A stretch of 63,963 bases of DNA, counting the filler, from Barthelona sp. PAP020 (lineage: Eukaryota), in the NCBI GenBank assembly GCA_040182905.1. It is 4 parts of 4 records of this genome, joined end to end, with 100 filler letters (N's around TTAATTAATTAA, not from the genome) between each part and the next. Parts side by side here need not be neighbours in the genome. Positions count along the whole stretch, not along the records: positions 18,271 to 36,338 come from JARQWU010000231.1; positions 36,439 to 54,487 come from JARQWU010000232.1; positions 54,588 to 63,963 come from JARQWU010000427.1; 1 more part is not named here. One strand, written 5' to 3'. Shown here in pieces: positions 26,505 to 56,752 of the stretch (its first letter is position 1; every line of letters begins with the position of its first letter). The notes under the pieces are model-generated. The model had not been told where the DNA came from. It saw only the letters and a list, made by a program, of their open reading frames with translations, and did no database searches. A program made the position numbers and the translations under genes.

Positions 26505-28829
26505 TTATTGATTCTCACACATCCCTTTATTTGGACAATCATCAACAATATATTCATGAATAAATGAAGATTTAAATGAATTGCCTCCGCACAACAAACG
26601 AGTTCCATCAACGTACAAAGCCATAACACAAATTTCAAATGAAACATATACTTTTTGCAATATTTCACCAGTTTCCTTCTTTGTCACAGCGAAAAATTTA
26701 TCTCGGGAGCAAGAATAAATCAATGAACCATCATGTGAAAAAACAATGGAAAAGATTCCATCTTCATGAACAGAATATCTGCCCAATAGCCTTTTATTTT
26801 CAACACTGAAAATTCTAATCACACCAAAACTATCACCAGTTGCCCAATCAGCACCATCAGGTGAAAAATTACCAGAAAGCACCCCACAATTATCATGACT
26901 CCACTGATGAAGTTGTTCATATGTCTGCATTGAAAACAGCTTTGAATAACCATCATTGCTTACTGAAACAAAATGCTTCATATCAGGGCTAATTCGAACA
27001 GACCGTACATATGCTGAATGAGCTCGTGATTCGTACAACTTCTGGCCTTCGACAGTATATATGGCAACATAACCATCCCACATGCCAAAAGAAAGCAATT
27101 TTCCGTCCGGTGAGAACCACACACGTTTAACATCCTTGGCTATATCCTTGATTACTCTTACTGTTCTCCAAGTATCAACCTCAATGATATGAATTGCTGG
27201 ACCATCACCACCAACCACCAACAATTTGGAATTTGGACTAAAATTGAGACCCATTGCCTTTAAATACCTCTTTTCATGAATAATTTCATGTGTTTCAGTG
27301 TTATAAACTCTTAACAATTGGTTATTATATCCAGCAACTGCAAAAAACCGTCCATCCGAACTGTAATCTAATGTGTAAACAACAAAACCTTGCAAAGAAC
27401 ATGAAAAATGTGGTGTTTCGGCAAATGTTTCAATGACTTCAAAGATTTTATTAGCTTCAATAATTTGAGTTTCTTCATAACCATTCATAGATTCACCAAA
27501 TAAAGAGCTTGGCTCTTGATTTTCATCCATACGAAAATTTTTAGCTTCAAGAAGATCATCTAATCTGTCTTCAAGCTCCATTTTTTCATTTTCTAAATTT
27601 TTAAACCGCTTTTTTAACATTATTTCACTGTCTTTTAACCTTTTAATTTCTTCCAATAATTTTTCTTTTTCATTCAAAAAATGCTCACTAGGCAATTTTT
27701 TCAATTGTTGAGTTGAAAGACCAAGTTGTTCTTTTGTCTCTTTCAATTCTTCTTTCAAATTTTTAATGATTTCTTCGTAAATCTCAAATTTTTTTTGAGA
27801 ATCTTCAGTAAATTGTTTCATTTCTTCTTCTAATTCATTGATTTTTCTTATCAACCGCTTATCATCAAATCCCAAACCTTCAAAACGCTCAATCAGCATC
27901 TGCAAATACTCAGTGATCTCACCAAACGTTGGCCTACATTCTGCCTCAACAGTCAAACACCTCTTGATGATTCCAAACCCAGGTATTGTATCCAACAATT
28001 CCTTGCTATACGGAAGTTGTCCCTTACCCAATTTAAAAATTACTTTCAACTCACTCAACCCTTCAAAAGGAACAAAACCAGACACTACCTGAGCCAACAT
28101 GACACCAAAGGACCAAGCATCAACAGCAGTTCCTATTATGTTCTCCTCTTCATTGGCCAACTCAGGAGCAGCATATCTTGCCGCACCCATCATAGAATTG
28201 GCCGAACTCCTGCTTGCATCACGAACAAGCCCAAAATCAGCAATTGCAGGTGTATACAACCCATCTACTCCACGTCTCAACAACACATTGTTTGGCTTAA
28301 GATCCCTATGCATAATGCCTTTCTCATGGCAAAACTCAAGGGCAGACGAAACTTGCATCATGATAACCAACTTCTCCTTCAAAGACAATTCTGGTATCAT
28401 ATCTTCAAGAACAGCATCACAATACTCCATCACAACACCCTTTTTATACTCAATCTCGGTCACTCCAAAGACTTGTCGAATGAATGGGTGATCTAAAACC
28501 ATTGGAAAACATTCTCTAGTAAGCTCATTAGGATCAATTTTGTCAACAAAAACTTTAACAACAACCATCTTTCCATGTCTTTTGGCAATATGTAAAAGCC
28601 CAAATCCACCTATTTTGAAATCTCTTTCAACAATTTCAATTTCATTTCCAGGAATATTAATGCTATTCGATTTCACAAATTTTTCCAATGTTTCAAAACA
28701 ACTCTCGTGCAATTCTTCTTCTTCAACAACCGTTGTAATCTTATTAAAATTAAGATAGAATTCACGTGAACCTTGGATTTCTCTGAAGGAAAACATGAAA
28801 GAAACACAACTGAAAACAAAGATTTTCAA
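26505..28829 (-). CDS. TKL-like Ser/Thr kinase + coiled coil + WD40 propeller
   Basis: IGGFG, VVVK, HRDLKPNN, DFG and APE present, then a heptad region and WD40 repeats. Start uncertain because the ORF track begins at TTG. Confidence 0.9.
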   Translation of the reverse strand: MKIFVFSCVSFMFSFREIQGSREFYLNFNKITTVVEEEELHESCFETLEKFVKSNSINIPGNEIEIVERDFKIGGFGLLHIAKRHGKMVVVKVFVDKIDPNELTRECFPMVLDHPFIRQVFGVTEIEYKKGVVMEYCDAVLEDMIPELSLKEKLVIMMQVSSALEFCHEKGIMHRDLKPNNVLLRRGVDGLYTPAIADFGLVRDASRSSANSMMGAARYAAPELANEEENIIGTAVDAWSFGVMLAQVVSGFVPFEGLSELKVIFKLGKGQLPYSKELLDTIPGFGIIKRCLTVEAECRPTFGEITEYLQMLIERFEGLGFDDKRLIRKINELEEEMKQFTEDSQKKFEIYEEIIKNLKEELKETKEQLGLSTQQLKKLPSEHFLNEKEKLLEEIKRLKDSEIMLKKRFKNLENEKMELEDRLDDLLEAKNFRMDENQEPSSLFGESMNGYEETQIIEANKIFEVIETFAETPHFSCSLQGFVVYTLDYSSDGRFFAVAGYNNQLLRVYNTETHEIIHEKRYLKAMGLNFSPNSKLLVVGGDGPAIHIIEVDTWRTVRVIKDIAKDVKRVWFSPDGKLLSFGMWDGYVAIYTVEGQKLYESRAHSAYVRSVRISPDMKHFVSVSNDGYSKLFSMQTYEQLHQWSHDNCGVLSGNFSPDGADWATGDSFGVIRIFSVENKRLLGRYSVHEDGIFSIVFSHDGSLIYSCSRDKFFAVTKKETGEILQKVYVSFEICVMALYVDGTRLLCGGNSFKSSFIHEYIVDDCPNKGMCENQ

Positions 28830-29328
28830 TTTCTTTTTTAGCTTTTCACCATTCCTATTAAAAAGTTTCGCACCATAAATTTAGACCACTTTTAATCTTT
28901 TACAATCTGTTTCAAGCATATTAAGTGCATTTATTGGTGCTTAAAGATATTTGACAGTTTTTCAACTGTAAGCAATTCTCAAATTGATAAAGAAAATATA
29001 CCGCCAATAGATTTTATCAAGTAAAAAAAGGTAACTTTACTTTATTCATTTCCTGAACAAACCATTTTTGATGACATTCCTGAATTAAGTAAAATGCAGG
29101 ATACTTAATGATAAATCAAAAATAGTAAAACATGAATTTAATGATAGTTATTTGATGGGAGCTACTGTTCCTCCAAATCCAAATTCATTGACTTATGGAA
29201 AAATAGAAAAGGTTTAGAACATTTTTACCATTTAACTATTGATCAGTAAATCAATATGTGAAAAGTTACCTTTTTTCAATATGATGAAAAGAACAAATTC
29301 AGTTCTGACTTCTCAAACAAAAATGAGC

Positions 29329-32300
29329 CTAATTTTTTACACAAGGAGTACTAAACTCAAGGATATTACCAATAGATAATTTGGAAGTGTTTGAACCTGT
29401 ATAACTAGTCTTTTGATGATTGACTGGAGTATTAAAAAAGGGACTTCGTTTTACAATGGCATCATCAAGAATTTGCATTGATTTTCTTTGTAATTGTTCA
29501 TTCTCTTTTTGGAGAATTTGAAAATTATTGTTAACATTTGTCAGTTCAACATTTTTTTCTTGAATTATAAATTTTTGTTGTTTGTAGCCCTTTTTCAGCT
29601 TATCATACTTGATTTTTAGCATTTCAAAATCGTTTTGCTGGTTTAAATACTTATTTGTTGTTTCTTTCAATTCATCTTCCATTTTAACATGTTTTACTTG
29701 ATCCAGATCATTCTTTTCAATAATTTCTTCAATCTTTCTTTCATAATCCCTGTGTAACTGTTTGTCCTTTGAATTTTCTTCCTCCAAATTGTTCAACATA
29801 TCTTTCATTCTAATTAAATCTTTCTTTTTATCATTCAAACTACCATTCAATTGTTCAATATGGTGGTTTAAATCATCATTACTCAATTGTTTTGCCATAA
29901 TATCTTCTTCATACATTTGAATCTGATAATTCAACAGTTCAACTCTTTGACTCAAAGTTTGAATTTCCATATCTTTTTTGAACGAAAGCATATCAGTGTC
30001 TTTTAACTTATTCATAGCGCTTTCCAATTCTTTTTGTGAAGATTGCTTTTTAGTTTCTACAATCTTTAAAAGTCTAGTGATTTCTCGATTTTCAGCTTGA
30101 TTCAATGATAATTGTCTTTGTACATTTGATAACTCGTTAAATATTTCATTGTATTCTTCTTTTTTTCTACTAATTTGTTGATTCAAAGCATTAACTTTTT
30201 CCTGTGCAATCATTTGCTCAAAAGAATGTCTTCTTCTTTCAATCTCAATTTCCTTTTCTTTTTGAGCATAAATTTTTGAAATGTCATGTGCATTCAACTT
30301 TTCCAAATACAAATCCTTCTCCAATACATCATTTTTTGATATTTCAGTTTCAAATTCATTCGATAAAAAAACTACCTGTGATTCAGCCATTCTTGAACGG
30401 GTTTCTGCAATTTTGTTCAAATATATTTGTTGGTCAAGTTCATTAGCGAGAAAACCAATCTGTGCTTCAGTCTGTTTCTTTAAAAAATCATATTTCTGCC
30501 TATCTTCATTGATTCCACTGTCAAATTGTTCCTTTACCATCTTATTCTTGATTTTTTCATCATTCAATTGACCTTCCAAATCATTGACATTATTGTTATG
30601 CCTCAATTGTTCGTTCATTAATCTGTTCGATAGATTTTCAATCTCATTCTTATGATAGTCTTGGAATTTGAGATGTGTTTCAATTTCTTCATCTAATTCT
30701 TGATCTAAGAAACGGTTTTGAGAAGTCAAACGTTCATTGTTTTCAATTTCTCTTTCAACTTCATTAGATAGGAAATTCATTTGAGCATCAGTTTGTTTCT
30801 TTAATTTATCAAACTTGGTTCTTGCTAAATCTAACTTGTTGTTGAGATTTTCAGCTTCTTGCTCATGTCTGTATCTTTCATCATTCAATTGACCTTCTAA
30901 ATCATTGACATTATTGTTATGCCTCAATTGTTCGTTCATTAATCTGTTCGATAGATTTTCAATCTCATTCTTATGATAGTCTTGGAATTTGAGATGTGTT
31001 TCAATTTCTTCATCTAATTCTTGATCTAAGAAACGGTTTTGAGAAGTCAAACGTTCATTGTTTTCAATTTCTCTTTCAACTTCATTAGATAGGAAATTCA
31101 TTTGAGCATCAGTTTGTTTCTTTAATTTATCAAACTTGGTTCTTGCTAAATCTAACTTGTTGTTGAGATTTTCAGCTTCTTGCTCATGTCTGTATCTTTC
31201 ATCATTCAATTGACCTTCTAAATCATTGACATTATTGTTATGCCTCAATTGTTCGTTCATTAATCTGTTCGATAGATTTTCAATCTCATTCTTATGATAG
31301 TCTCGTAAATTCATCAATTCTACTTTTAGTTCTTCTATTTGAGCATCTTTGGCATCCAATTGCCTCTTTAGTTGGTTGTTTTCATTCTGTATTTCTAATT
31401 TACTAGCTTTCATTTCATTTACTTCATCATCCATCGAAATCAACTGATTTTGGGCGGCCATTAGGTCTTTCCTATAAGAATTGACACTGCTCTTTAAAGA
31501 CAACTCAATAGCTTCCAACTGATCAAACTCATGATTTTTAACTCTTAAAGCATGACTAAGCTCTTCATTTCTTCTTGATAATTCTAAAAACTTTCGGTCA
31601 AAATCTTCCCCGTCACTAAGCAATCTCAATTCAATCTTCTCAATGGTTTGCAATCTATCTTCTGCCAAATGCTTTGATTGTTCATACAATTTCTGAAAAT
31701 GTTCTTTGCCCTTTTTGTATCTGAACAGGTCACTCCGCAGTTTTGTCATCAAATCACTTTCATCAACAACCTCATTCATAACTACCTTATTACTTACTCT
31801 TGATGCTTTCAATCCAAATCTCATGGTAGACACAGTTTCTTCAATAAATTTCCCAGAAGGAGTAACACAACAAATGATAACAGTATTTGAATTGCCTCCC
31901 AATGCATTTTGCAAAATTCGAGTCAATTTAGAATTACGATAACTAACGTGCTTTTGATAATTCCCATTTTCTTCTCTTTTCACCAATTCTTGTATTACAT
32001 TTCCAAGATATAATAAAGAACGGTTAATACTAGAACCTTCAAGCAGTCGTACACCCTCTGCTTTTGTTTGTGCAATACGTTCAGAACCAGCTAAATCAAC
32101 AAGATTCAAATTTGCCTCTCTAACAAGTTCAAATTGTTCATCTCCCTCACCACAAACTTCTTTAGAAGAAATATGAATGGTAAATATGGTATGGGATCTG
32201 GATGACTCATCATTAATTCCAGTAGCATGAGTTTGTCTCTGAAGCTGTCCTAAATTCAAAATTTCAATCACATCTGCAGGATTTTCAACCTTAACACTCT

Positions 32301-32811
32301 TGATACCCTCTAAAAATACACCAATTCCCACTTTTTCTCTAATAATCGGAATATTACTTGGATCTAACAAGTCAGTTAATTTCTCCATATATATTTCCAA
32401 ATATGACACTTCACAATGAAATTCTCTTTGTGGATACTTTTCCATTAAATTGAATAAGTGATGAATAGATAATGGCAAAATACCTTTGTCCTCTTCAATT
32501 CCACTCATTGTATATGTTTTACCACTAGATGTTTGTCCATATGCAAAAATCGTCCCATGATATCCTTCAACTGCTTGATCTATAATTGGCGATGCAACAT
32601 TATGATAAATTTCTGTATTTGTTGTATCTGGACCAAACACATAATCAAAAATAAATTCTCTGTCATTAGTTAAATGAGCTGGTTGATTCTTTGAAAGATT
32701 ATTTAAATTAATAACATTTTCATGAAGAGTTAAAGCAAAATCATGGTTTTGATTCACTTCAAAAGTCGATAACGGTCGTACTCTTACTGCAACATTAATT
32801 TTTGGACACAT
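29329..32811 (-). CDS. N-terminal-motor kinesin (kinesin-7/CENP-E-like) with long coiled coil
   Basis: VAVRVRP, FAYGQTSSGKT, SSRSH, LVDLAGSE, HVSYRNSKLTRILQ; ATG at 32811. Confidence 0.93.
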   Translation of the reverse strand: MCPKINVAVRVRPLSTFEVNQNHDFALTLHENVINLNNLSKNQPAHLTNDREFIFDYVFGPDTTNTEIYHNVASPIIDQAVEGYHGTIFAYGQTSSGKTYTMSGIEEDKGILPLSIHHLFNLMEKYPQREFHCEVSYLEIYMEKLTDLLDPSNIPIIREKVGIGVFLEGIKSVKVENPADVIEILNLGQLQRQTHATGINDESSRSHTIFTIHISSKEVCGEGDEQFELVREANLNLVDLAGSERIAQTKAEGVRLLEGSSINRSLLYLGNVIQELVKREENGNYQKHVSYRNSKLTRILQNALGGNSNTVIICCVTPSGKFIEETVSTMRFGLKASRVSNKVVMNEVVDESDLMTKLRSDLFRYKKGKEHFQKLYEQSKHLAEDRLQTIEKIELRLLSDGEDFDRKFLELSRRNEELSHALRVKNHEFDQLEAIELSLKSSVNSYRKDLMAAQNQLISMDDEVNEMKASKLEIQNENNQLKRQLDAKDAQIEELKVELMNLRDYHKNEIENLSNRLMNEQLRHNNNVNDLEGQLNDERYRHEQEAENLNNKLDLARTKFDKLKKQTDAQMNFLSNEVEREIENNERLTSQNRFLDQELDEEIETHLKFQDYHKNEIENLSNRLMNEQLRHNNNVNDLEGQLNDERYRHEQEAENLNNKLDLARTKFDKLKKQTDAQMNFLSNEVEREIENNERLTSQNRFLDQELDEEIETHLKFQDYHKNEIENLSNRLMNEQLRHNNNVNDLEGQLNDEKIKNKMVKEQFDSGINEDRQKYDFLKKQTEAQIGFLANELDQQIYLNKIAETRSRMAESQVVFLSNEFETEISKNDVLEKDLYLEKLNAHDISKIYAQKEKEIEIERRRHSFEQMIAQEKVNALNQQISRKKEEYNEIFNELSNVQRQLSLNQAENREITRLLKIVETKKQSSQKELESAMNKLKDTDMLSFKKDMEIQTLSQRVELLNYQIQMYEEDIMAKQLSNDDLNHHIEQLNGSLNDKKKDLIRMKDMLNNLEEENSKDKQLHRDYERKIEEIIEKNDLDQVKHVKMEDELKETTNKYLNQQNDFEMLKIKYDKLKKGYKQQKFIIQEKNVELTNVNNNFQILQKENEQLQRKSMQILDDAIVKRSPFFNTPVNHQKTSYTGSNTSKLSIGNILEFSTPCVKN
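30556..31302. repeat. 321-bp in-frame tandem repeat (~2.3 copies) in the kinesin stalk
   Basis: tatgatagtc ends at 30660, 30981 and 31302; the two full copies look identical. Confidence 0.95.
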
Positions 32812-33062
32812 TGAAGCAAAAAAAAGTTCGATTGACGCCAAATTTTTTTTGCTTTTTTATGAAATGATAATTTCTTAAGTTGTCTATATAAAACATTTCG
32901 AATAATTTCATATATTTATTGTTTTAAAAATGCAGGTAAAAAAAAAATTCCAAAAAAAATGAAAGTAATAAATTTTTCTTTCCAAACAAAAACAAAATGA
33001 ATGACACTCATTATTTATAAAATTACTTGTTTCTTTCTGTATGCAGTAATTTGTTTACAATT

Positions 33063-35933
33063 TTACAAGAAATGAAGTTTAGAAGCAAGATCATTGTGAA
33101 CTAAATCTCTTGGAGATTGTAAATCAGATTCCATCAAGGTTTCACCAACAAATTTAGAATATTTAAGAGCGTTTTGCATTGGTGCAGGATATTTGAGAGA
33201 TCCAGGTTTTGTGAAATAAAGATGAGTTAACAAAAATGTAAGATGAATAAATTGATCTCTTAAGAAAGCATTATCATTGAAAATAACAATATAATGAACA
33301 GGTTTAGCCATAGAATTTCTTGAAATAGGCTTACAACTGTGTAAATAAAAATCAAAAACTTCACCAGAACTGACATTGCTGCCTAATAAGATATCATCTG
33401 TACTTCTACAAATATCACCCAATGCAAAAGTACCTGTGGGAGGGTTGAAATAGTTACCATCATGTGGCCAAAACATTCTTAAAGGTGTTTGGTTGTGAAC
33501 AACACAATAAGTCAAACTGGTGTTAATACCGCTGTTTAAGAATGATTCTTTCAAAGTGGTACAATCTTGAATAACGATATCTTCGTAAGCTACAGTGGGT
33601 ATTCCACCTCTATAAACAATGACTGAAGCAGGTGATTTACCTTGACCTCTAAAGTAATTCATACAATCGATTGATAATTCAGAAAATTCAGAAGAACAAT
33701 CTGTTTTATCAACTAATCTAAAATCAGACCAAAACTCCAAATTATGTTCTCCTTCACCAACATACATTGCAGAAACAACAAATATTGATCTAGTTGTTGT
33801 TAAAGAATTGTAAATGTCTGATCCAATCACAAGGAAAGGTGTTGAAACACGAGATAAATTATTTCTCAATTCAGTAGCCCAATTGATATCCCAAATGGAA
33901 GCACCCATCTTGACTTGCAATTGTGCAATCAAATTAGAGCATACAACCTTCAAATTACGATGCTTTTCAGCATTAACATATTGCGATACAATATTATTAA
34001 CAGAACAAAAGCGTTTAAGCACTCTATAAGGTTCAGCATCACCATTCTCTGCAATTACCAAAATGCAATCAAAGTTAACGCATTCATTTTCCAAAAATGC
34101 ACCTAAATTAGCAGCATTTATTTCACGAGTGACTGGTCTAGCCATCATATGTCCAACATATAACTTAGCAATAGAATCAAAATTCCTTAAAATTTCCATT
34201 GTTTTTGCTTCGCCTTCGTTTGAGGAACAAATTCGAATTACTATCCAATTGTTCATGGTTCTAGGATTCTTGTAATGGATTCTCTGTAATTCTTTTCCCC
34301 AATCATCAGAACCAGCCACAGCTTTTGCTTCAGCACCAATTTTTAAATAAATCGAAGGTAAAACTTTTGTATCTGGTTGACGAATACGTCTACAATTGCT
34401 AATATGAGGTTCTAATGCAATTCCCCAAGATTGAATAATCTCAATTGGTGAATTATCAAAAGCTTTTCCATTTCGACGAGTAGATATTTCAGTTATCAAT
34501 TTTAAAAATGCTTCCACCTTATTCATAAATTCAATCGGATGTAATTGAGTCATTTTTGTGATTCTATGTCTCATCGATTCAGGAGTATTGGTCAAATAAC
34601 AAACACTAAGGGGATAATAAGTAAATTTAGGATTACCTTCTCTGTCTTTACCCTTCACAAAAAGCAACCCTTCATTAGGATCAATCGTCATGTTATACTT
34701 GATATTGTAATACTCACATATCGAAGTCATCTTTCCATTGTAATCAAACTGCTCATGTCCAGCTGTTTTTTCCATGTCTCGGTCATGAATTAGCACAGTT
34801 TTATTTAAGTGAGGAATTAAAACCTCCAAATTACGGAAGTTACTAATGTCACCATAATTTGCAAGGGCGCCAAGATGATCGCGAGGAATAATTTTAGGTT
34901 GAGGAACAATAAATAAGGAATAACCAGTTTTTAATTTGCAAACTTGAGTCTTGTATTGAGTGTGAATAAAAAATTCGTCCCTTTCTTCCTTTCTACTTGT
35001 GACATATGATTTGCCAATCTTAACCAAATCTGTGCTCTGTAAAGCTTTATTAATGATCAAATTCAAAATTTGCTCATGAATAACTTGATCTTCAACGGAA
35101 TCAACTTCATTAATCATCGATTTAAAAGCAATTTTTGGACGCAAAACTTGTCCCTTAATAAATGGAATTTCACAAGTATAATCATTTAAATAGCTGCAAT
35201 CTTCACCTTTAATGAAAAATGAGTTTCCATCTATGAGAATTAACTTAAAATCGGGCTCTTTTGAATAACTTCCAAAAGCCTCTCTAATTGTTCTTACTAC
35301 AATTCGTTCCATTTTTTTCCTTGAAACACTTTCCAAATTTTGTATGACATAATGTTGAACTTGCAAATTTCCAACATGTAAATCAATGGAATTAATGGCC
35401 AATTCAGAATTCTTTTGAAACATATGTCTTTCTGGTTCTCTTGGAAAAGAAAAACTTCTTCCTCCACGATCTCCTCTAAAGGCACCACGATTTCCTCTAA
35501 ATCCTCCTCTAGTCCCTCGAAAACTACCACGAGGTGCTCTAAATCCACCACGATCACTTCCTCGGAAACCTCCACGACCTCCACGACCTCTATATGGTCT
35601 TCTATCTTGATATTCACGACGTTGATAATTATCCTGCCTGGGATCATCATAATATCCATATGGTGGTGCTCCCGGTGGTCCTTGTGGCATAAATTGAGGA
35701 GGTGGTCCTTGAGGTCCATCATACATAGGAGCATAACCAGATTGTGGATAATTACCTGCACCATAATTGGAAGGTCCTCGAGATGGTGGAGGTCCAGAAT
35801 GATATCCACCAGGAGGACCTGATTGATAACCTTGAGGTTGTCCTTGATAACCAGAATTTGGATCTTGATAATATCTATTAGGAGGTTGAGAACTCATATT
35901 TCTCCCATAATTGTTACCATAAGAATTATTCAT
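33063..35933 (-). CDS. PIWI-clade Argonaute with RG-rich N-terminus; slicer residues degenerate
   Basis: RGG/GRG repeats; PAZ (SICEYYNIKY); MID (YRVLKR, SQYV, QLQVKMG); PIWI (VIGSD, IVYRGG, THLYF...PAP). Likely ATG at 35933. Confidence 0.92.
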   Translation of the reverse strand: MNNSYGNNYGRNMSSQPPNRYYQDPNSGYQGQPQGYQSGPPGGYHSGPPPSRGPSNYGAGNYPQSGYAPMYDGPQGPPPQFMPQGPPGAPPYGYYDDPRQDNYQRREYQDRRPYRGRGGRGGFRGSDRGGFRAPRGSFRGTRGGFRGNRGAFRGDRGGRSFSFPREPERHMFQKNSELAINSIDLHVGNLQVQHYVIQNLESVSRKKMERIVVRTIREAFGSYSKEPDFKLILIDGNSFFIKGEDCSYLNDYTCEIPFIKGQVLRPKIAFKSMINEVDSVEDQVIHEQILNLIINKALQSTDLVKIGKSYVTSRKEERDEFFIHTQYKTQVCKLKTGYSLFIVPQPKIIPRDHLGALANYGDISNFRNLEVLIPHLNKTVLIHDRDMEKTAGHEQFDYNGKMTSICEYYNIKYNMTIDPNEGLLFVKGKDREGNPKFTYYPLSVCYLTNTPESMRHRITKMTQLHPIEFMNKVEAFLKLITEISTRRNGKAFDNSPIEIIQSWGIALEPHISNCRRIRQPDTKVLPSIYLKIGAEAKAVAGSDDWGKELQRIHYKNPRTMNNWIVIRICSSNEGEAKTMEILRNFDSIAKLYVGHMMARPVTREINAANLGAFLENECVNFDCILVIAENGDAEPYRVLKRFCSVNNIVSQYVNAEKHRNLKVVCSNLIAQLQVKMGASIWDINWATELRNNLSRVSTPFLVIGSDIYNSLTTTRSIFVVSAMYVGEGEHNLEFWSDFRLVDKTDCSSEFSELSIDCMNYFRGQGKSPASVIVYRGGIPTVAYEDIVIQDCTTLKESFLNSGINTSLTYCVVHNQTPLRMFWPHDGNYFNPPTGTFALGDICRSTDDILLGSNVSSGEVFDFYLHSCKPISRNSMAKPVHYIVIFNDNAFLRDQFIHLTFLLTHLYFTKPGSLKYPAPMQNALKYSKFVGETLMESDLQSPRDLVHNDLASKLHFL

Positions 35934-36338
35934 ACGGAAAAAATTGAGAAAAAATAAACTTACACTTTTTCTTCTGCCTTTTTTTTTCATTGCCAATTTA
36001 CCACCTTATTATTCCAACAATTAAAAATAAAATAAAAATATAAAGACTAAAGGAAAACAAATAAAAAAAACCCTGTTAAATTCTTGTAAATTTCCTTTTT
36101 TTTTTGTTTTTTTTTTTTGCATCTTACAATCAATTCATTTTACGAACGACCAAAAATTATATTACATTATCGCATAAAGAAAAGAATCTAAAAATATTTA
36201 TTTTGAGAAGAAATTTGTATTTTTTTTTTTTTGAAAAATGTCTGACCAAGAGGAAAACATTAAGAAATTTCAAATTAAAAGATTAATTCAATCTTTAAGA
36301 GGATACAGAGGGTATAATTTTTTTAATATTCATGATAT

Positions 36339-36438: not shown

Positions 36439-36439
36439 C

Positions 36440-45819: not shown

Positions 45820-46100
45820 CAAAAGTATATTATTTGCATAAATGCATGAATATCAACAAACAATTCCAACGAAAAAAAAATAAATCAAAATTCCCAACTT
45901 CCAACATATTTTATGAAAGCAATCAAATAAAATTTATCATTCATTTATTTATTTAAAATCTAAATTTAAAGAATTAAAGGAGATTATCTCAAAATTATCA
46001 AGTATCTTTCTCAAAACACATAAGTCTTCTTAATTGACACAAATATTCAGACAAACAATAAAAAATAAAAGAAAAACCACATATTTACAAAGATAAACCA

Positions 46101-46847: not shown

Positions 46848-46854
46848 TAATATT

Positions 46855-46888
<34 letters not shown>

Positions 46889-47097
46889 ACAAATTAACTA
46901 GTATAATTATATGTTATATGTATTTCATTCGAAAAATAAACAATGGAAAAATATCAAATTGACAAATCACCAAAAAAAAATTCACAAAAAAATTTACAAC
47001 AAGAAATCAACAATTTTTTTTAAAAAAATAGAAAATAAAAAATATCAAGAAGGAATGATACAATTAAAACAAAAACAAATCAATCATTGTCCTTTAA

Positions 47098-49086
47098 TCA
47101 TGTTGAAATGATTTCAGCCAAAGTTTTCAAGTTTGTCACTAATTTTTGGGAAGCTAATTGATGTGCAAATAATTTCAATAAATTAACAAATATCTTCCCA
47201 AAACCTTTTAAAACTTTGAATTTTTTCTTGTCGTTTTCATAAATTCTCAAATGTCGAATCAAACATTCAACAGCAAAGGAAATATTCATATTTTCATTGA
47301 CAATAAAAGGAAAGAAATCAAGTTTGTCTTTATTAAACATTAACAACTTAACTACAGCATTGACAAATGAACTTTCCAACATTTCTTTTTGTTCTTCAGA
47401 AATTTGCTCAAAAACATGCTCTCGAATGAGGTCAAACATTTCAAAACGTTTGGATACATCATCAAACAGTAAAAGAAACGATTCTTGCAATTCTAAAACA
47501 ATTGAATGTTCATACACATCAAATTCACAATTAATTTCCACGATAAACAAATCGAATAAATTCATTGTAAAGCTGCCGGGAAACACACTTAGAATTTTCA
47601 ACTTCTCTAATAACGCCAAATCAATCTGATCAATAACCCGTTTGAAAACAACATTCAGCAAGTGTAAACCTTTGGCCAGAGAATCTTCGAAGACAGCAAG
47701 AATTTCATCTCCTTTCAGATTCTTTCGATGTTCAATGATTTGACCCATAATCTTAATTGCCTGTGGATATCCACCAGTTAAATTTGATAAATGAAGTGCT
47801 GAACTTTGTGAAATGCGAGTACAATGAGACAATGCCAATAATGCACCTGCATGCTTCGACAAAGGTTTGAGCCCAACAGATAAGAAATCAGCGTTATTTA
47901 CTGCAACTCCAACAGGACTGCGACTTGTGACAATGACTATTGCTCTACCATGTGTTGGTATTAACTGTTCAAGGATGTACGGATCTGAGCAGTTCTCAAC
48001 CAACATTAGTCTATGTGTCTCAAATAGGCGGTCATATAATTCGTCTATTGATTTCCCGGATGAGTTAAATAAAAGATCTTTTTCTTCACTTGTCTTTCCG
48101 TCTATTTTCAGTGCTAATATTCTACAAATTACTTTTTTTGCAGAAACGACATCTATATGGCCTGTCATTGCTTGCATGTCAACATAAACACTAATATAGT
48201 TCTCAGAAAGAGTTTCAACCAGTTTTGCAGCAAGACAACTCTTGCCAACACCTGCACTTCCCCAAATAACCACTACTTGTGAGCTGTTATAAGAGTTGAA
48301 CAAGAACTGCTCAATTTCTGCTAATTCACTATTTCGTCCATAAAAGCTATTCATAATCAAATCCTGATATCGATCTGTTGACCGAAAAACACGTTCATCT
48401 ATCAAATTTTGGTTCATCTTTTTAATTCCCCCATCTCTTCTAATGTAAGCAGATGAGTTATTGTTAAAATACAATGGTTGATTTCCTTTTTTTACAACAA
48501 CAGATAACATGTAATAATTGGGTATTATACCCTCATTTGCATCATATAAAGGAATGAACTTAACAGTATACAATTCTATATCAACTTTGGGTCGAAATAA
48601 ACCAATAATAGTGTTGATATTGACAGTCAATCTTTTAACATCATCTGTGGAGAAATTCATTCCAATGATTTCCCCATCGTCTTCCACTCCAATCCACAAC
48701 TTTCCTCCATCTGTGTTTAAAAATGCACACACATATTGAGCAACATATTTGTTCAAACAATTAATAAAATTTTCATCTTGAACAATCACCTTGAACTCAT
48801 TATGCTTTTCTTCTTCAATAATTATCCGATTATGTTTTATATACATTCCTAAAGTATCCATCGATATGTCTAAACTATCGTCAGAGATTATCTCAATGTC
48901 ATTTTCATCAATAATTTCCTCGTTTAGCTCATCAACATTAAGAATAGATGCATTTGAGCTTGAAAAACTACGGACCCCCAATAAAACATCTAAACGAGTA
49001 TTCGAAGATGTTATAAAACTTTCTTCATCTTGAAAATTTGTATTTAACATCGTTTCATTCAATAAATATTGTTTTTCAAAATACAT
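47098..49086 (-). CDS. Schlafen/AlbA_2 nuclease domain + STAND (NB-ARC-like) NTPase + winged helix
   Basis: EEKHNEFK, YVCAFLNTDGGKLWIGVEDDG and YIRRDG; FYGRNSE, GSAGVGKS, LMLVEN, IVTSR, GGYPQAI, LSVFPGSF, MFDLIR. Confidence 0.9.
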   Translation of the reverse strand: MYFEKQYLLNETMLNTNFQDEESFITSSNTRLDVLLGVRSFSSSNASILNVDELNEEIIDENDIEIISDDSLDISMDTLGMYIKHNRIIIEEEKHNEFKVIVQDENFINCLNKYVAQYVCAFLNTDGGKLWIGVEDDGEIIGMNFSTDDVKRLTVNINTIIGLFRPKVDIELYTVKFIPLYDANEGIIPNYYMLSVVVKKGNQPLYFNNNSSAYIRRDGGIKKMNQNLIDERVFRSTDRYQDLIMNSFYGRNSELAEIEQFLFNSYNSSQVVVIWGSAGVGKSCLAAKLVETLSENYISVYVDMQAMTGHIDVVSAKKVICRILALKIDGKTSEEKDLLFNSSGKSIDELYDRLFETHRLMLVENCSDPYILEQLIPTHGRAIVIVTSRSPVGVAVNNADFLSVGLKPLSKHAGALLALSHCTRISQSSALHLSNLTGGYPQAIKIMGQIIEHRKNLKGDEILAVFEDSLAKGLHLLNVVFKRVIDQIDLALLEKLKILSVFPGSFTMNLFDLFIVEINCEFDVYEHSIVLELQESFLLLFDDVSKRFEMFDLIREHVFEQISEEQKEMLESSFVNAVVKLLMFNKDKLDFFPFIVNENMNISFAVECLIRHLRIYENDKKKFKVLKGFGKIFVNLLKLFAHQLASQKLVTNLKTLAEIIST

Positions 49087-49231
49087 TCAAAATGATTTTT
49101 TTTATTGAATAATTCATTTCTTTTCAAATATAAAGCACAAATCGAAAGAAAAAAACAACAATCTTCAAAAGAAAAGAATGAATGGCTTACATGAATTTTT
49201 TTTTTATATCAAATAGAATCATATCTTTATA

Positions 49232-50392
49232 ATGCCGACACAGGATGTTTATGATTTTTTTGAAAAGAAGAGTTTACTGGGACTTGGAACGTATGGTATG
49301 GTATTTTTAGGTTATGAAAAGAAAACTGGCAGAGAAGTTGCATTAAAAGTTTACAAACATGATAGGGAAACTAATGTTAGACAATTACGTGAGATAGATT
49401 TCTGTCGTAGAATGAAACATGAGAATATTGCTGATTATTTAGGTGTTTTCACATCATATGAACCTAAAAATACTTATGATGATCAAGTAAAGAATCCTTA
49501 TATACCAGATAGAGCTAATACACCTTGTATTCATAATCAAACAAACAATTCAACTCGTAGATTTGTTTGGAGCGTTTATTTGTATGAAAACCATACTTTA
49601 TCAACACTTTTGAGACGATTACCTTCTCAATCTAGATACAACATAGCATTTAGAATTCAATTTGCTAAGCATGTTATACAAGGCCTATTGAGAGCCTTAG
49701 ATTATTTGCACAAACATGGTGTCATCCATCGTGATATTAAAACGGCTAACATTTTGATTAACCGTGATTCTAGTGTTAAATTAACAGATTTTGGTCTTGC
49801 TAGACAGTTTGTTGATGATACTGGAAGAATCAGATACAACGTTCATATGACTAATAGAGTAATTACATCAAATTATCGTCCTCCTGAGTTATTTTATGGT
49901 GCCATTACTTATGGACCCGAGGTTGATATTTGGTCTGCTGGTATAGTCCTAGCGGAATTGTTAGCGCCAGGATTTTTAGAAAATACGAATAATACCGAAG
50001 AATTCTCGTGGGGTGGATGGTTCCATAAATTGGTCGGTTTTCCTGATGTTTCCAAGCAAGAAAATGCTGCTTTAGAGGAGTTACCGTTTTTCCATATTTT
50101 TGTACCGAAAAATCCGAATCCTTCCAATATTGATAATCAAGAAATGTTAAAGAAGAGGATTCGTCAATGTTCTGGTGAAATAAGTGAAGAAAATATGGCA
50201 TTATGTTTGCAAATGTTAAAAGTTCATCCTGGTGAAAGGCCCTCTGCTGAAGAATGTTTGACTCATCCTTGGTTTTCAAGTGATCCCAAGCCTGGGCCAG
50301 TTGATCTCAGTGAAATCGGTGACTCTCATCCAAAGCCCAAAAGTAATCCCAATGATTTAAAAAGACAACCCTTAGATTCATCGAGATTTTAG
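49232..50392 (+). CDS. Cyclin-dependent kinase, CDK9/CDK12-like (divergent)
   Basis: [43 protein letters not shown]...YGPEVDIWS. Confidence 0.88.
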
Positions 50393-50659
50393 AATTGATT
50401 ATGAAATTCAAAAAAAAAAAAAATGTGAAATTGCAGGCAAAACAAAAATATTTCAATTTGAACTTTTATCCAACATATAAATTGTTTAACTCTCTTTTTT
50501 TTTTGTCAACTTTAAGAAATATATTAAAAATTAGTCAAACCAAATTAACAATAATTTAGAACTCCAGTTAAAATCTTTTGCAAGAAATTCAAAAAGAAAT
50601 CAGACGAGTTTTACGAGGAAAACATTAGTGGAGACATTTAATGTGAATCAAGGGGCTAA

Positions 50660-50835
50660 AGGAAAGTATTACATTTTTCCCTAAATACCTGCTCCAAATA
50701 AAAAGGAAGCATTTGTTTTCCTTTTTTTTAAGAATTTTCTGAACCATCCACGCAAAACGACTCAGTTGCAAGTACCCCCAAACTCTAACCGAGAAGAATA
50801 AAGATCTTTATAAACATTTATTATTTTGTCAAGTG
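50660..50835. repeat. Dispersed repeat family A copy downstream of tRNA-Val
   Basis: ctgaaccatccacgcaaaacgactcagttgcaagtacccccaaactctaaccgagaa is nearly identical to 58035-58091. Confidence 0.88.
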
Positions 50836-50863
50836 AAACAACTGTTGAAATTCAATTGCTAAA

Positions 50864-50872
50864 GACTCGATC
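50864..50872 (-). promoter_or_regulatory. Extra B-box-like motif GATCGAGTC downstream of tRNA-Val
   Basis: Fits GWTCRANNC; the same 9-mer occurs at an equivalent offset after tRNA-Gly. Confidence 0.55.
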
Positions 50873-50899
50873 TTCAACCTGTTTAAAATCATTTTAAAA

Positions 50900-50972
50900 T
50901 GATCTTGCCGGGTTTCGATCCCGGGACCACCTGCGTGTTAGGCAGGCACTCTCCCAACTGAGCTACAAGATC
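50900..50972 (-). tRNA. trnV: tRNA-Val(AAC)
   Basis: Cloverleaf GATCTTG...CCTGC-CTAACAC-GCAGG...CCGGG-ATCGAAA-CCCGG-CAAGATC-A, followed by TTTT. Confidence 0.95.
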
Positions 50973-51360
50973 TTGTTTACAACAAGAATCTCAATTAATA
51001 AATCAAATGGTAAATTTAAAAAGTTTTAAGGTTCTATTAATGTGTTGGAGTCAAAATTTTCAAAACAATAATTATTCATCAAAATACTTAACTTTATTAA
51101 ATTTGTAAAATGAATGTTTCATAATTTATTTTTGAAAATATCAATTAATAATAATTTTTATTTATTAGATATTTATGAGGTATGTGTTGTTCAGTGAACA
51201 ACGAAATGAGTTAGCTTAAGGTTTGGGGAAAACTCACGTGAATTCAGATGCCCAAGTAACTTAAAGAATTGGACCTAAGAAATAATAAATAAAGGAAGTG
51301 ATATTTGATGACCTTTTTATATCTCCAATAAATTCCAATCATTGAGCATGAACTTCCACA

Positions 51361-51694
51361 TTATTTCTAAACTAAGAAACGTTTTGCATATAAGTGAATA
51401 AAAGAGAATAGTGTTGGTCAAGTTGTGAAACAACTATATTTATTTACAAAGAAAAAGTAATCAGAAAAAACTCATTTAATTAAATCTCAGCCACAGAAAA
51501 TGAGTGGCTGCAGTTGTATCTTAATCATTCCTGTTTTTTTGTATTTTTACAAAAACAAAATATTAAAGTTTAAACTTTCCCCCAGAAAATCTAAAGTTTT
51601 CAACAGATCAATCGGGCCTCGAAAGCCATTAAACAAATGAGCACTATTCTTCTGTATTCACTCATATACACAGTGCTTCTTGGCTTCGAAATAA
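51361..51694. mobile_element. Degenerate MITE-like element or long inverted repeat
   Basis: 51361-51415 versus the reverse complement of 51640-51694: 42/55 ungapped identity by manual alignment; no ORF. Confidence 0.55.
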
Positions 51695-52291
51695 TTGCAA
51701 TAAAATTAATTCAAAATACTCACTTTAATGAATTTTAGTCAAAACCAAAGCGAAGAATTAAAGGACTGAAATGTGACTTCGACGATCAAGCAGGAAAATT
51801 TGGCGCAATTTTCTTGTCCCTGTTCTTTGTATGGAACAAAAGCAAAATTTTTAAGTTCTGACTTACTTCTTTTGAAAATTAAAAATTGAAGAAGTTAACA
51901 TAGAAATATTAGTTTTGATCACTCCAAAAGAGATTTGTAGCACATCACATTTGTTATTAAAAGGCACAACGAAAATTTCATGAACTCTTTGACAGTTACA
52001 ACACAATACAATACAGCAATTGCTCTTTTGCTTTTAAAAAGAATTGTCCAACAAGGAATTTTTTGTTTTTTAGACACAGAATCTGAGTTTTGTAGTGAAT
52101 GAAAGAGGAAATTGGATGTGAAGTTAAAGTTGCTCAAATGAAACATTTCAAGCCCTCTTCAAATCACTCAGTTAGTAACAAACCTTTCTCAGAGATTATA
52201 TCAAGAAAAGAATAAACTATGATTTATATGTGAAGAAAAAATATCCACAAAACATGAATGGAATAAACATATAACTACACAAAAGACCTTT

Positions 52292-54487
52292 CTAATCATC
52301 ATTGTCATCACTGTTATCACTATCATCATCTTCTATCTCTTCATCAATATGCTGACGCATATTGCCACCATTCCTTTCATTGATGTCAATCAAATCCCAA
52401 CATAAGTTGATTGACATATCAAAATCTCTTTGATTCATGTAAACTCCAGCACTGACAAATTCTCGGATGATGACACTGTCTACCTTCATTGCAACAAGTG
52501 TTGATAAAAGATAGCCCTCATTCTTTACCAATTCAATCAACTCGGATTTGGACAAATGTTCAAATTTCAAATCAACAGGCTCGCCACTCTTCAATTTTTG
52601 TTTTAAATTGGGACAGCTCAAAATGCTGTATTTGTTCTTTTTCCATTGTTCATCACTTGTATACAATCTGTTGAAAAATAGCAGCATATCTTCACCATAT
52701 AGGTTTATTTCGGGACAATCTAGAAGCATCTTGGCAATATCAAGATAACCATAATAACAACTGACATACAATGGAGAATATCCCCCGTGCCTACACAAAT
52801 TAACATCAGCTCCATAATCCAAGAGCATTCTGGCAACATCAAGGTGACCATTTTGACAACTGACGTACAATGGAGAACTACCATCATTAGGAAACAAATT
52901 AACATCAGCGCCATGATCCAAGAGCATTTTGGCAACATCAAGATGACCATTTTGACAACTAATGTACAATGGAGAAGTGCCATTGTTTTTACACAAATTA
53001 AAATCAGCGTCATGATCCAAAAGCATTTTGGCAACATCAAGATGACCATTTTGACAACTAATGTACAATGGAGAAGTGCCATTGTTTTTACACAAATTAA
53101 AATCAGCGTCATGATCCAAGAGCATTTTGGCAACATCAAGATGACCATTTTGACAACTGACGTACAATGGAGAACTACCATCATTTGGAAACAAATTAAC
53201 ATCAGCGTCATGATCCAAGAGCATTTTGGCAACATCAAGATGACCTTGTTCACAACTGATGTACAATGAAGAAGCACCATTATTCTTACACAAATTAACA
53301 TCAGCGCCATGATCCAAAACCATTCTGGCAATATCAAGATGGCCATTTTGACAACTAATGTACAATGGAGAAGCACCGTCATTCATACACAAATTAACAT
53401 CAGCGCCATGATCCAAAACCATTCTAGCAACATCAAGATGACCATTTTGACAACTGATGTACAATGAACAAGCACCATTATTCTTACACAAATTAACATC
53501 AGCGCCATGATCCAAAACCATTCTGGCAACATTAAGATGGCCATTTTGACAACTAATGTACAATGAAGAAGCACCATTATTATTGCACAAATTAATATCA
53601 GCTCCATGATCTAAGAGCATTCTGGCAACATCAAAATGACCTTCTTTACAACTGACATACAATGGAGAAAATCCACCATCCCTACACAAATTAACATCAG
53701 CCCCATGATCCAAGAGCATTTCGGCAACATCAAGATGACCATTTTGACAACTGATGCACAATGGAGAAAATCCACCATCCCTACACAAATTTACATCTGC
53801 TCCATGATCCAAGAGCATTTTGGCGACATCAAAATGACCTTGTTGACAACTGATGTACAATGGAGAAGCACCATCATTCTTACACGAATTAACATCAGCG
53901 CCATGATTCAAAAGCATTCTGGCAACATCAAGATGGCCTTTTTGACAACTGATGTACAATGGAGAAAAACCATCATTATCACACAAATTAACATCAGCTC
54001 TATGATCCAAGAGCATTTTGGCGACATCAAGATGATCTTGATGACAACTGATGTACAATGGAGAAACACCATCGTTTACACACAAATTAACATCAGCTCC
54101 ATGATCCAAGAGCATTCTGGCAACATCAAGATGACCATTATAACAACTGATGTATAATGGAGAAGCATTATCATACATACTCAAATGAACATCAGCGCCA
54201 AAATCCAACAAAAACTCAACAACTTCTAATTGCCCATAAAAAGCAGCTCCAAACAATGTTGTTCTTCCTTCCTTACCCTGTTTGTTCACATCAACGCCAG
54301 CTTTGATACACTGCTTGATAAGCTCAAGATTACCATAAAAAGCTGCATAATATATCTTCTTTGGACGACCATTATCTTCAAATCCATCCACATCGAACCC
54401 ATCTGGAACAACAACTTGATCCATATTATACTTAACATAAGGATCAGTTTCCTCAACTGCAGTGTTAACAATCATTGTCGGCAAAAA
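52292..54487 (-). CDS. ~17 ankyrin repeats + conserved unknown C-terminal module (probably 5'-truncated; kinase may lie upstream)
   Basis: Near-identical 99-bp ANK units. PYVKYNMDQVVVPDGF linker is shared with the kinase-ANK gene; tail is shared with the ORFs at 1 and 55535. Confidence 0.92.
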   Translation of the reverse strand, partial: FLPTMIVNTAVEETDPYVKYNMDQVVVPDGFDVDGFEDNGRPKKIYYAAFYGNLELIKQCIKAGVDVNKQGKEGRTTLFGAAFYGQLEVVEFLLDFGADVHLSMYDNASPLYISCYNGHLDVARMLLDHGADVNLCVNDGVSPLYISCHQDHLDVAKMLLDHRADVNLCDNDGFSPLYISCQKGHLDVARMLLNHGADVNSCKNDGASPLYISCQQGHFDVAKMLLDHGADVNLCRDGGFSPLCISCQNGHLDVAEMLLDHGADVNLCRDGGFSPLYVSCKEGHFDVARMLLDHGADINLCNNNGASSLYISCQNGHLNVARMVLDHGADVNLCKNNGACSLYISCQNGHLDVARMVLDHGADVNLCMNDGASPLYISCQNGHLDIARMVLDHGADVNLCKNNGASSLYISCEQGHLDVAKMLLDHDADVNLFPNDGSSPLYVSCQNGHLDVAKMLLDHDADFNLCKNNGTSPLYISCQNGHLDVAKMLLDHDADFNLCKNNGTSPLYISCQNGHLDVAKMLLDHGADVNLFPNDGSSPLYVSCQNGHLDVARMLLDYGADVNLCRHGGYSPLYVSCYYGYLDIAKMLLDCPEINLYGEDMLLFFNRLYTSDEQWKKNKYSILSCPNLKQKLKSGEPVDLKFEHLSKSELIELVKNEGYLLSTLVAMKVDSVIIREFVSAGVYMNQRDFDMSINLCWDLIDINERNGGNMRQHIDEEIEDDDSDNSDDNDD

Positions 54488-54587
54488 NNNNNNNNNNNNN
54501 NNNNNNNNNNNNNNNNNNNNNNNNNNNNNNNTTAATTAATTAANNNNNNNNNNNNNNNNNNNNNNNNNNNNNNNNNNNNNNNNNNNN
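54488..54587. other. Artificial contig spacer
   Basis: N44-TTAATTAATTAA-N44. Confidence 0.98.
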
Positions 54588-54887
54588 TAATGTAAAGGAA
54601 TCTGGTTTATTTTATTAACTAACGAATCAAATAATCCTGAGTACCAGCATCTCGGAATTTAAGGAATAACAAAAGGGGAAAAGTTCCCTCGGAAAAATAA
54701 AACTCACGATTGCTAAGAGGTGCGGTCCTTTAGAAAACAAAATTCTTATTGTTTTGATCTCCTCTTTTTCAGTTTTAGAATTTTCATTCTTTTGGGATTA
54801 CTAGCTTTAGATGCAGGAGTATCTTGGGTTAGTTCTTCCTTTGCGTCCTCTTTCGGTCAAATTTTTGTTGTTGCCTGATTAATTGAT

Positions 54888-55098
54888 AACAAATGCTTAT
54901 AAAGACCTTTATTGTTCGCGGTCAGAGTTTGGGGTACTTGCAACTGTATCCTTTGTATCATGAATCATTTGATTCTTTGCTGTCATTTCACTTTCAATTT
55001 TGATATCTATTAATATCAGAAATTGCAAAAAAAAACTTTAAACACATTTGTATTATCTTTCACGTGAAATTTGTTGGCTTTGCTACGAACACAAAATA
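54888..55098. repeat. Dispersed repeat family A copy
   Basis: aaatgcttataaagacctttattgttcgcggtcagagtttggggtacttgcaact, then module 2 ending ctttgctacgaacacaaa. Confidence 0.85.
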
Positions 55099-55534
55099 AC
55101 TCTTTGACAAAGAATGTAACTGACAACCAGAAGGATCTAAATGCAAAATAAACGTGTTGTAAATGTAAAAAACAATATTCTACTTTATTTTAAACAATTT
55201 TTTTCAAAGAATTGGTGTTCTTTCTACTTGTATTATGTGATTTCGTAGCTTTAGTACCCATTAAAATGTAAAGTTAAAAACAAACAATTGAAAGTGTATG
55301 TGGTGTCTTTGTATGAAATTCATTTCTAGCCGTACACGCATCTTTTCTTCTATCGTCTTCAAATGGTTTCTTTTTTCAATTTTTTTCGAAAATTTGCCAA
55401 AAAAAAAAAGAAAAATCCTCTTTAATTTTCATAAATATTAATGAAAGAAGTGATATTTTCTTTTTTTGCTGAACACTGGATTTTAAAAAATTAAATATGC
55501 GGTTTCCTACAATTCACACAATAAAAATCTCCAC

Positions 55535-56752
55535 TCAAGCATCCTCTTCATCACCATCACTGTCACTGTCAGAAATATGTTCTCCCATAAATTCAAATAG
55601 GTTACCTCCATTTGTATTGTTTAAGTCAACCAAATCCCAGCATTTATCAACCACTATGCTGCATTCTTCCTTGTTTATGTGGATTCCAGCTGCTACCAAT
55701 TGTCTAATAGTTTGGGTATCCATGTTCAGACCAGCTACAAGATTCAATAACACATAGCCACCATTCTTTGACAATTCAATGAGTTCGGACTGATGTGAAG
55801 GATCATACAAATGCATAATTGAATAAATTTTTACTGTATTATCGGTGCATCTTCCACATACGAATTGTTTCTTATCTGGAGACAGAGTGCTGGAGAAGAA
55901 ACAATCGTCACAACCACAAAACACCTTTTGAATCTCCTGAAAACTATCAACATTGTATAGAGTAATGAAGCCATCACCAGACATAATAAGTAGAATATTT
56001 GAAGTAAGAAAATGAAGAGACCATACTTCACCATCCATATAAAATGTGTGAATAAGTGATCCGTCATCCATGTTCCAAAGTTTGACTTTCTCTGATACAT
56101 CGCCAACAGCAATAATTTGTTGAGTTGGGTGGAAATCAACAGCATGCCCAACTCCATCTTGGTCAAATGAACGAATAACCGAGAAATTTTCACAGTCAAC
56201 TAATTTAGCAGTGTAATCTTGACTAGTAGTCAACAAATAATTTCCATTAAATGAAAGTTTAAATCTCCAAACAATATCTGAGTGAATTTTTGATTCACAA
56301 ACAACTATTCCTTTCTTTATGTCCCATTTTTTTAAATTCATACCGCTATTAAAATAAAGATAACAACAACAACGAGAAAAACAGACTGTCTGAGTATCAA
56401 TATTATTTTGAATGATGGTTAAAATTGAAAAGTTTTGAAGACTGTAGAGAACAATAGAAATTGGACAAGCGACAGCTAGCATTTTTCCATCATGAGAAAA
56501 GGAAATGTCTGAATTATCATATTCCTGAAAAGGTTCCAAAATTGTTTTTAATTTTCGGATTTCCATATCAACTATAAATAGTTTATCATAAACACAAAGA
56601 ACCAAATATTTACTATCAATAGAATATTTACAACAATACAGATCCTCTGAAATAACTCCTCGAATTTCTTTCACATTATCTTCATTTATTTTTAAAGGAA
56701 ATAAATCACCAATATTTTTTGCTATCGATTTTTCATTTGATTCAACAGACAT
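55535..56752 (-). CDS. WD40 propeller + the same conserved C-terminal module as the ankyrin proteins
   Basis: WD40 blades (LKKWD, VKLWN); C-terminal SELIELSKNGGY...CWDLVDLNNTNGGNL plus acidic tail. Confidence 0.9.
   Translation of the reverse strand: MSVESNEKSIAKNIGDLFPLKINEDNVKEIRGVISEDLYCCKYSIDSKYLVLCVYDKLFIVDMEIRKLKTILEPFQEYDNSDISFSHDGKMLAVACPISIVLYSLQNFSILTIIQNNIDTQTVCFSRCCCYLYFNSGMNLKKWDIKKGIVVCESKIHSDIVWRFKLSFNGNYLLTTSQDYTAKLVDCENFSVIRSFDQDGVGHAVDFHPTQQIIAVGDVSEKVKLWNMDDGSLIHTFYMDGEVWSLHFLTSNILLIMSGDGFITLYNVDSFQEIQKVFCGCDDCFFSSTLSPDKKQFVCGRCTDNTVKIYSIMHLYDPSHQSELIELSKNGGYVLLNLVAGLNMDTQTIRQLVAAGIHINKEECSIVVDKCWDLVDLNNTNGGNLFEFMGEHISDSDSDGDEEDA

Follow-up and report, generated by a model that had tools for sequence, protein, structure and literature searches.

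A conserved C-terminal tail on ankyrin, WD40 and kinase-ankyrin proteins of Barthelona sp. PAP020, a possible docking box

Among the closest described counterparts of the proteins reported here are the SOCS-box receptors ASB and WSB (CRL5), which occur as many paralogues and carry a short, conserved helical C-terminal module behind variable ankyrin (ANK) repeats or WD40 domains (PMC4403949). Fungal NLR-like proteins of the HET-E type show combinatorial architectures, and their near-identical ANK repeats have positively selected sites and vary in number (PMC4986451). In Giardia, about 200 NEK kinases and about 300 ankyrin proteins form overlapping domain networks that include many dead kinases, with cytoskeletal localisation and a link to rearrangement (PMC7641422). 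Here we describe a protein family of Barthelona sp. PAP020 that shares features with each of these systems and is marked by a conserved C-terminal tail, starting from five genes on a 63,963-nucleotide stretch of DNA (assembly GCA_040182905.1; hereafter the window). The organism is a free-living, anaerobic metamonad of a deep-branching, barely studied lineage.

Four contigs (1-18170, 18271-36338, 36439-54487 and 54588-63963) make up the window, with N linkers between them. Its DNA is AT-rich (~31% GC) and gene-dense, with long unbroken reading frames. A preliminary description had placed five genes in it, here called A to E, and had read them as a shuffled receptor repertoire comparable to fungal NLR-like proteins. 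We recovered all five genes where they had been placed and with the domains assigned to them. Three encode the tail. Gene A (1-1014, plus strand), whose 5' part lies outside the window, encodes divergent ANK repeats, a neck, the tail (~760-996) and an acidic end. Gene D (52292-54487, minus strand), cut at a contig end, encodes a C-like linker with 17 ANK repeats (~54370-52700), an A-like last repeat and neck, the tail (52567-52340) and an acidic end; a kinase likely lies upstream, beyond the contig end. Gene E (55535-56752, minus strand) is complete and, from Pfam, a structure model and the family alignment, consists of an N-terminal helix, a WD40 propeller (~56695-55811), a five-helix tail (55807-55577) and an acidic end.

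The tail is not present in genes B and C. Gene B (26505-28796, minus strand) is complete; Pfam and motifs identify a Ser/Thr kinase (~28634-27882) and a WD40 domain (~27389-26547), separated by a coiled coil that is predicted from reading the sequence by eye. Its start had been set at 28829 and was moved to the ATG at 28796 because the paralogue P0031 aligns from that Met. Gene C (36440-38440, plus strand), cut at the contig start, retains a kinase C-lobe (~36449-36703), a PYVK linker, 17 ANK repeats and an ordinary end. All five reading frames are open. Three members are truncated, as the preliminary description had noted: gene A is cut by the window start, and genes C and D are cut at opposite ends of one contig, with both breaks inside the 5' parts of family genes. 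The members had also been called unlinked, which is in part incorrect, as C and D lie on one contig. No sequencing run was listed for 52200-56900. A window protein that we take to be PEPCK-like matches an entry in the EukProt protein set letter for letter, and the gene A protein is 94% identical to the Barthelona transcript protein P0004. For B, D and E, the Barthelona protein set contains paralogues only (best 51%, 52% and 53%), and it thus gives an incomplete view of the family.

The tails of A, D and E are 40-50% identical (E ~1e-15), about 75 residues long and helical, in agreement with the shared module seen earlier. Their core reads CWDL..N..NGGN and is followed by an acidic end; no Pfam family covers them. 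A profile built from four tails identified 24 proteins among 3402 candidates, all of them EukProt Trinity entries: 18 WD40 proteins, one fragment, four short ANK isoforms and one long ANK protein. A profile of 20 tails gave 45 matches at E <= 0.001 when searched against 1.84 billion representatives. The tail stood at the C-terminus in 42 of these; the remaining three are plain ANK proteins that match only within profile positions 13-66. In total, 63 tail sequences (three from the window) form 54 clusters at 90% identity, and three further members have a variant GGN, with fragments and possible Trinity chimeras included in these counts. The suspicion of a large family is supported. All 19 tail proteins that were looked up belong to Barthelona, and dozens of family members are transcribed, as their Trinity-derived entries show. 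None of 51 pattern matches in viral contigs and none of 10 in metagenome contigs was a tail relative. No tail was found in the prokaryote contigs searched (GTDB), where we take the single match, L001, as a chance match lying over a housekeeping gene in a Leptospira bin.

Of 52 non-redundant sequences, 42 have a single WD40 propeller as host, with the fragment P0007 included among them. The other hosts comprise ANK proteins, the pseudokinase-ANK protein P0025, a partial propeller and P0113, which has no Pfam repeat. P0087, an importin-alpha-like armadillo protein by its Pfam match (E 5.5e-8), also carries the tail, and P0100, P0101 and P0106 are probable double-propeller hosts for which Pfam support is weak. 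Seven divergent tail-bearing propellers (P0099, P0101, P0103, P0106, P0107, P0109 and P0110) have extra N-terminal helical segments. Pairwise similarity among these seven is weak except between P0101 and P0106. Their N-terminal helices and the tail may form one solenoid, with the propeller as an insert.

Across the 52 non-redundant tails, L+3, N+7 and GGN are invariant and C is present in 46, where GGN and L belonged to the pattern by which these tails were selected. The propellers of 17 WD40-tail proteins share a mean identity of 41%; their tails share 54%, and the tail cores 63%. The model of gene E (predicted local distance difference test, pLDDT, 88) shows the propeller, then five tail helices (~80-90) and a disordered acidic end; a model of the tail alone reached pLDDT 71. 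Neither Foldseek against the PDB nor the viral structure library returned a match to the tail model at E <= 0.001. VIA gave a best Z of 4.3 (root-mean-square deviation 4.0 over 73 aligned residues) and no clear match, searches with full-length models returned propellers only, the tail profile had no match among PDB sequences (best E 1.1), and Atlas held no usable match for the gene E tail. A weak or missing fold match does not show that the tail is a new fold.

The dominant shared module is a tail at the C-terminus, which matches how ubiquitin-ligase substrate receptors, rather than NLRs, are built. Like ASB and WSB, the Barthelona tail proteins have a conserved C-terminal module behind ANK or WD40. 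The CRL2 receptors with C-terminal boxes are further examples of such an arrangement. We suggest that the family is a Barthelona repertoire of modular binders, in which one conserved tail follows interchangeable WD40, ANK, armadillo and kinase-ANK domains. The variable domains would bind different targets, and the tail would hand whatever they bind to one shared partner, with the near-invariant CWDL..N..NGGN as the putative docking face. Repeat-rich spacers and repeat arrays would drive duplication and exchange. By this analogy the tail is probably a common docking module of some kind. A cullin-type ubiquitin ligase as its partner is a tentative proposal. The combined reading, a lineage-specific docking box on interchangeable binders whose partner is most likely such a ligase, is accordingly the one we favour and likewise short of probable. 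It is favoured because a conserved C-terminal module on unrelated binding folds is the layout of cullin receptors, and because adaptors of a new kind can occur in protists, as in trypanosomes, whose cullins work with client adaptors that are novel and lineage-specific (PMC12816148).

Several results weigh against it. A BC box (strict pattern), an LPxP cullin box and an F-box pattern were each found in none of 20 tails, and the same 20 had no Pfam match to SOCS-box, VHL or F-box at E <= 10. The propellers are mostly not of the WDxR type, which a loose pattern found in 5 of 17. Architecture alone cannot name the partner. Judged by its motifs, the tail lies outside the SOCS-box and F-box families. 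It differs from the ASB and WSB module in lacking a BC box, LPxP and a Pfam match, in its length of ~75 residues, its GGN loop and acidic end, and in its further occurrence on armadillo and kinase-ANK proteins. The tail does contain a hydrophobic-x3-C-x3-hydrophobic spacing in mid-helix, with Ile or Val instead of Leu. A weak UBA-like Pfam match was seen in only 2 of 20 tails (best E 0.0045).

Where the tail came from is suggested by the three partial ANK matches and by P0113, whose residues 60-253 Atlas places among degenerate ANK clusters (best 0.94; a lead only). These similarities point to the end of a degenerate ankyrin-like solenoid as a possible source of the tail. Against this, the tail is not picked up by a profile built from the ANK units of the window (hhalign probability 0.3%, no score outside the range of shuffles). 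A bolder version of the docking proposal would have barthelonids invent an adaptor box from such a degenerate ankyrin end, unrelated in sequence to F-box, SOCS/VHL, BTB and DCAF, and graft it repeatedly onto WD40, ANK, armadillo and kinase-ANK proteins. The result would be a surveillance repertoire, DARPin-like and recombining, by which foreign or self proteins are marked for one machine downstream. We rate this version as fairly improbable.

The kinases of B and C had been described as close paralogues, and we agree, because the C-lobe of C is 46% identical to B (E 1e-24), as against at most 32% over comparable lengths for the other 44 listed matches (best E 3e-7). It is also 46% identical to the Barthelona paralogue P0031. 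The catalytic motifs of the gene B kinase are intact. A single kinase subfamily thus stands at the head of either a WD40 domain (B) or an ANK array (C), and the tail-bearing P0025 combines a pseudokinase with ANK repeats (kinase-profile score 11.6 vs a best of 3.1 in 500 shuffles). On the docking-box reading, genes such as B and C, with a kinase joined to WD40 or ANK but without the tail, would encode versions of the same binders whose output is phosphorylation. A further pseudokinase gene lies at 15200-17824 (plus strand; profile E 2e-15, altered catalytic motifs) and is 25-29% like the kinases of B and C. It has an uncharacterised N-terminal region and a C-terminal region that looks RRM-like by eye; Pfam names the kinase only.

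These kinase-ANK, kinase-coiled coil and pseudokinase forms recall Giardia, a member of the sister group whose NEK-ankyrin and Protein 21.1/ARP families are a metamonad expansion of kinase, ankyrin and coiled-coil proteins, dead kinases included, with cytoskeletal localisation (PMC7641422). The Barthelona proteins could be the barthelonid counterpart, namely cytoskeletal or localisation scaffolds with the tail as a targeting signal. However, no preference for NEKs was apparent for the gene B kinase: the best 60 of its 150 PDB matches include no NEK, and the best of all is MARK (E 2e-24), at a generic level. Barthelona also differs from the Giardia families in that WD40 propellers dominate. The tail profile gave no match identified as Giardia, and no tail-bearing protein identified as non-Barthelona. 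Diversifying selection, for which the ANK repeats of C and D give evidence below, would be unexpected in a structural scaffold. We therefore consider a scaffold family of this kind unlikely.

We compared the WD40 domains, which the preliminary description had treated as a module shared by B and E. The motif it cited, ESxxHS, is present in B, E and four tail-WD40 proteins, where it marks one ordinary WD repeat. The wider claim fails: because B and E are only 22% identical (E 2.5e-6), which is background level, their WD40s are not sister modules. The gene B domain is in fact 25% identical (E 3e-8) to a housekeeping-type WD40 at 23850, and E is 28-53% identical along its length to full-length tail-WD40 proteins. 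The WD40 of the kinase gene is thus unrelated to the tail-WD40 family, an outcome that the preliminary description itself had named as contrary to its interpretation.

Exchange of modules was examined on a tree of 53 tails over 75 columns, from which 13 near-duplicates and fragments were left out and for which the bootstrap did not converge. Six host labels need six changes on this tree. An approximately unbiased (AU) test rejects a single clade for all 45 single-propeller tails (p-AU 0.02), a modest result that shares the weaknesses of the model. A 20-row tree remained compatible with one clade of the three ANK-bearing tails (p 0.3). An apparent incongruence between tail and propeller among 17 WD40-tail proteins (p-AU 0.005 and 0.0003) was discarded because 89 of 100 random column sets and five of six propeller blocks gave a difference of equal size. 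Within the WD40-tail proteins, the separate trees proposed earlier as a check on shuffling are thus no more incongruent than random column sets.

Gene D adds to this picture. It shares a linker with gene C, as had been noticed (17 of 29 residues match, score 84 vs a shuffle maximum of 51), and this linker was not found in A or B. Gene D resembles C in the linker and first repeats and A in the neck and tail, with all of these matches exceeding the shuffle maxima; on this sequence similarity it is a mosaic with a C-like 5' part and an A-like 3' part. With one kinase joined to either WD40 or ANK and the tail on at least four host types, the exchange proposed in the preliminary description stands between host types and falls within the WD40-tail clade, as far as sequence comparison goes. 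Since changes between hosts are seen and incongruence within the WD40 proteins is not, the tail appears to have been grafted occasionally, after which whole genes were duplicated without continual mixing.

The ANK arrays of C and D, each of 17 repeats as first counted, have a unit of 99 bp and vary at few sites. Of their 34 repeats, 26 entered the analysis; the end repeats were excluded, as was one inserted codon. DNA identity among the units is 85% in D, 83% in C and 82% when C is compared with D. Amino-acid identity over 99 residues is 87% in D and 84% in C, so that D passes an internal conservation threshold of 85% over ~100 residues and C is borderline. Variation in the unit is concentrated at positions 2, 4, 6, 10, 14 and 15 (and 28), and we take these to lie mostly on the hairpin and inner helix that form the binding face of ankyrin repeats. 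A codon test of M2a against M1a gave p 0.048 for D, p 0.00065 for C and p 2.5e-5 for both, with omega ~3 and a posterior of at least 0.99 at sites 2 and 6 over the 26 repeats, although the test is our own implementation and recombination among repeats can inflate it. These values favour diversifying selection at predicted surface sites of the C and D repeats. The variable sites of DARPins form the concave face (PMC8229355). In plants, animals and dikarya, only 0.4-1.2% of repeats overall reach the 85% threshold (PMC4986451).

In conservation and diversification, the ANK repeats match what is described for the repeats of fungal NLRs. These features also favour an alternative: ANK and WD40 domains that evolve fast would act as sensors of ligands from bacteria, viruses or self-damage, with output by way of the kinase or by assembly of tails with tails or adaptors, much like fungal NLR repeats minus the ATPase. 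A-type isoforms and transcripts differ by one 33-residue repeat, which may be real or an assembly effect. The kinase is also better conserved than its WD40 between B and P0031 (77% vs 47%), and the contig of C and D carries a gene (47098-49086, minus strand) in which Schlafen/AlbA_2 (E 1.5e-17) is fused to a STAND ATPase of NB-ARC-like type (E 8.6e-7) and which ends in a helical part. By its predicted domains, this gene is a candidate for a true NLR-like protein. However, Pfam finds no NACHT or NB-ARC in the complete genes B and E, and none was found in P0025 and P0031; A, C and D are truncated at the 5' end, so this negative covers complete genes. The WD40 genes B and E also yielded no internal repeat array, and most of the non-redundant tail proteins are propeller proteins. 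The shared module is moreover C-terminal, a further difference from fungal NLR-like proteins. A non-self sensor repertoire is, in our view, fairly unlikely as the primary explanation. It is compatible with a docking box if the output is ubiquitination of foreign proteins, and an immune role of the family is hypothetical.

We also examined the spacers beside the family genes. A main dispersed repeat, degenerate and non-coding, lies 3' of gene A (1385-1797), 3' of gene C (39301-39482), 3' of gene D beside tRNA-Val (50712-50837; tRNA 50900-50972), 3' of gene E (54886-55099) and, in two pieces, 5' of gene E near tRNA-Gly (57430-58138; tRNA 58326-58396). Each of the five long spacers that flank A, C, D or E (947-1899 bp) contains this repeat, a further copy lies at the window end, and none of 11 listed short spacers (<=573 bp) has one. 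This association is confounded by length, because long spacers hold more room for repeats. The two most similar copies (91%; 50712-50972 and 58018-58396) are arranged alike, with a tRNA gene at a distance of 60-190 bp, a placement also shown by mobile elements that target tRNA genes. The intergenic repeats have no similarity to family proteins and belong to no Rfam family. A second dispersed non-coding repeat (25434-25602 and 39723-39899, 71% identical) is found in spacers downstream of B and C.

The placement of the main repeat fits duplication of the family through unstable regions. It also agrees with a mostly neutral expansion, in which the tail acts as a stabilising cap or as a mobile, exon-like cassette that spread together with the repeat in unstable genome parts. 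The breaks of the C and D contig inside family genes at both ends point the same way, as does the possible derivation of the tail from an ANK end. Set against this are the confounding by spacer length, the five open frames, the transcription of dozens of members and polar and aromatic residues that are near-invariant across otherwise unrelated hosts. A neutral origin of this kind is very unlikely.

Other genes of the window include one for an Argonaute/Piwi protein (33063-36005, minus strand), which has both PAZ and Piwi domains and whose N-terminus is rich in RGG. A 1974-residue protein (39928-45852, minus strand) has hydrophobic segments at each end and no Pfam match, and is likely a large surface protein. 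A kinesin-like gene (29329-32856, minus strand) contains a 321-bp in-frame tandem repeat in its coiled-coil stalk (30425-31340), with copies up to 99% identical that reflect either recent duplication or an assembly effect.

The observations of the preliminary description are thus confirmed in part, and its interpretation is supported in part. The family is apparently undescribed in the literature searched. We found no literature linking Barthelona with cullin, Skoliomonas with ankyrin, or the SOCS box with protists, and a search for metamonad ankyrin-kinase proteins returned only a Giardia muris paper. The main text of PMC11316075 does not contain 'ankyrin', 'WD40' or 'expansion'; its supplements may list these proteins.

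What is new is the uncatalogued tail, on a design already known from variable binders with a shared C-terminal box. No fewer than 50 distinct proteins of this deep-branching eukaryote lineage are united by the strongly conserved module. Should it prove to dock a ligase, it would represent an independent invention of the principle behind the F-box and SOCS box, and would provide one bait for finding the machine. Through the ANK arrays, repeat diversification as known in fungal NLRs would extend to a free-living metamonad and to proteins that are not NLRs, and non-self recognition in protists would thereby become testable.

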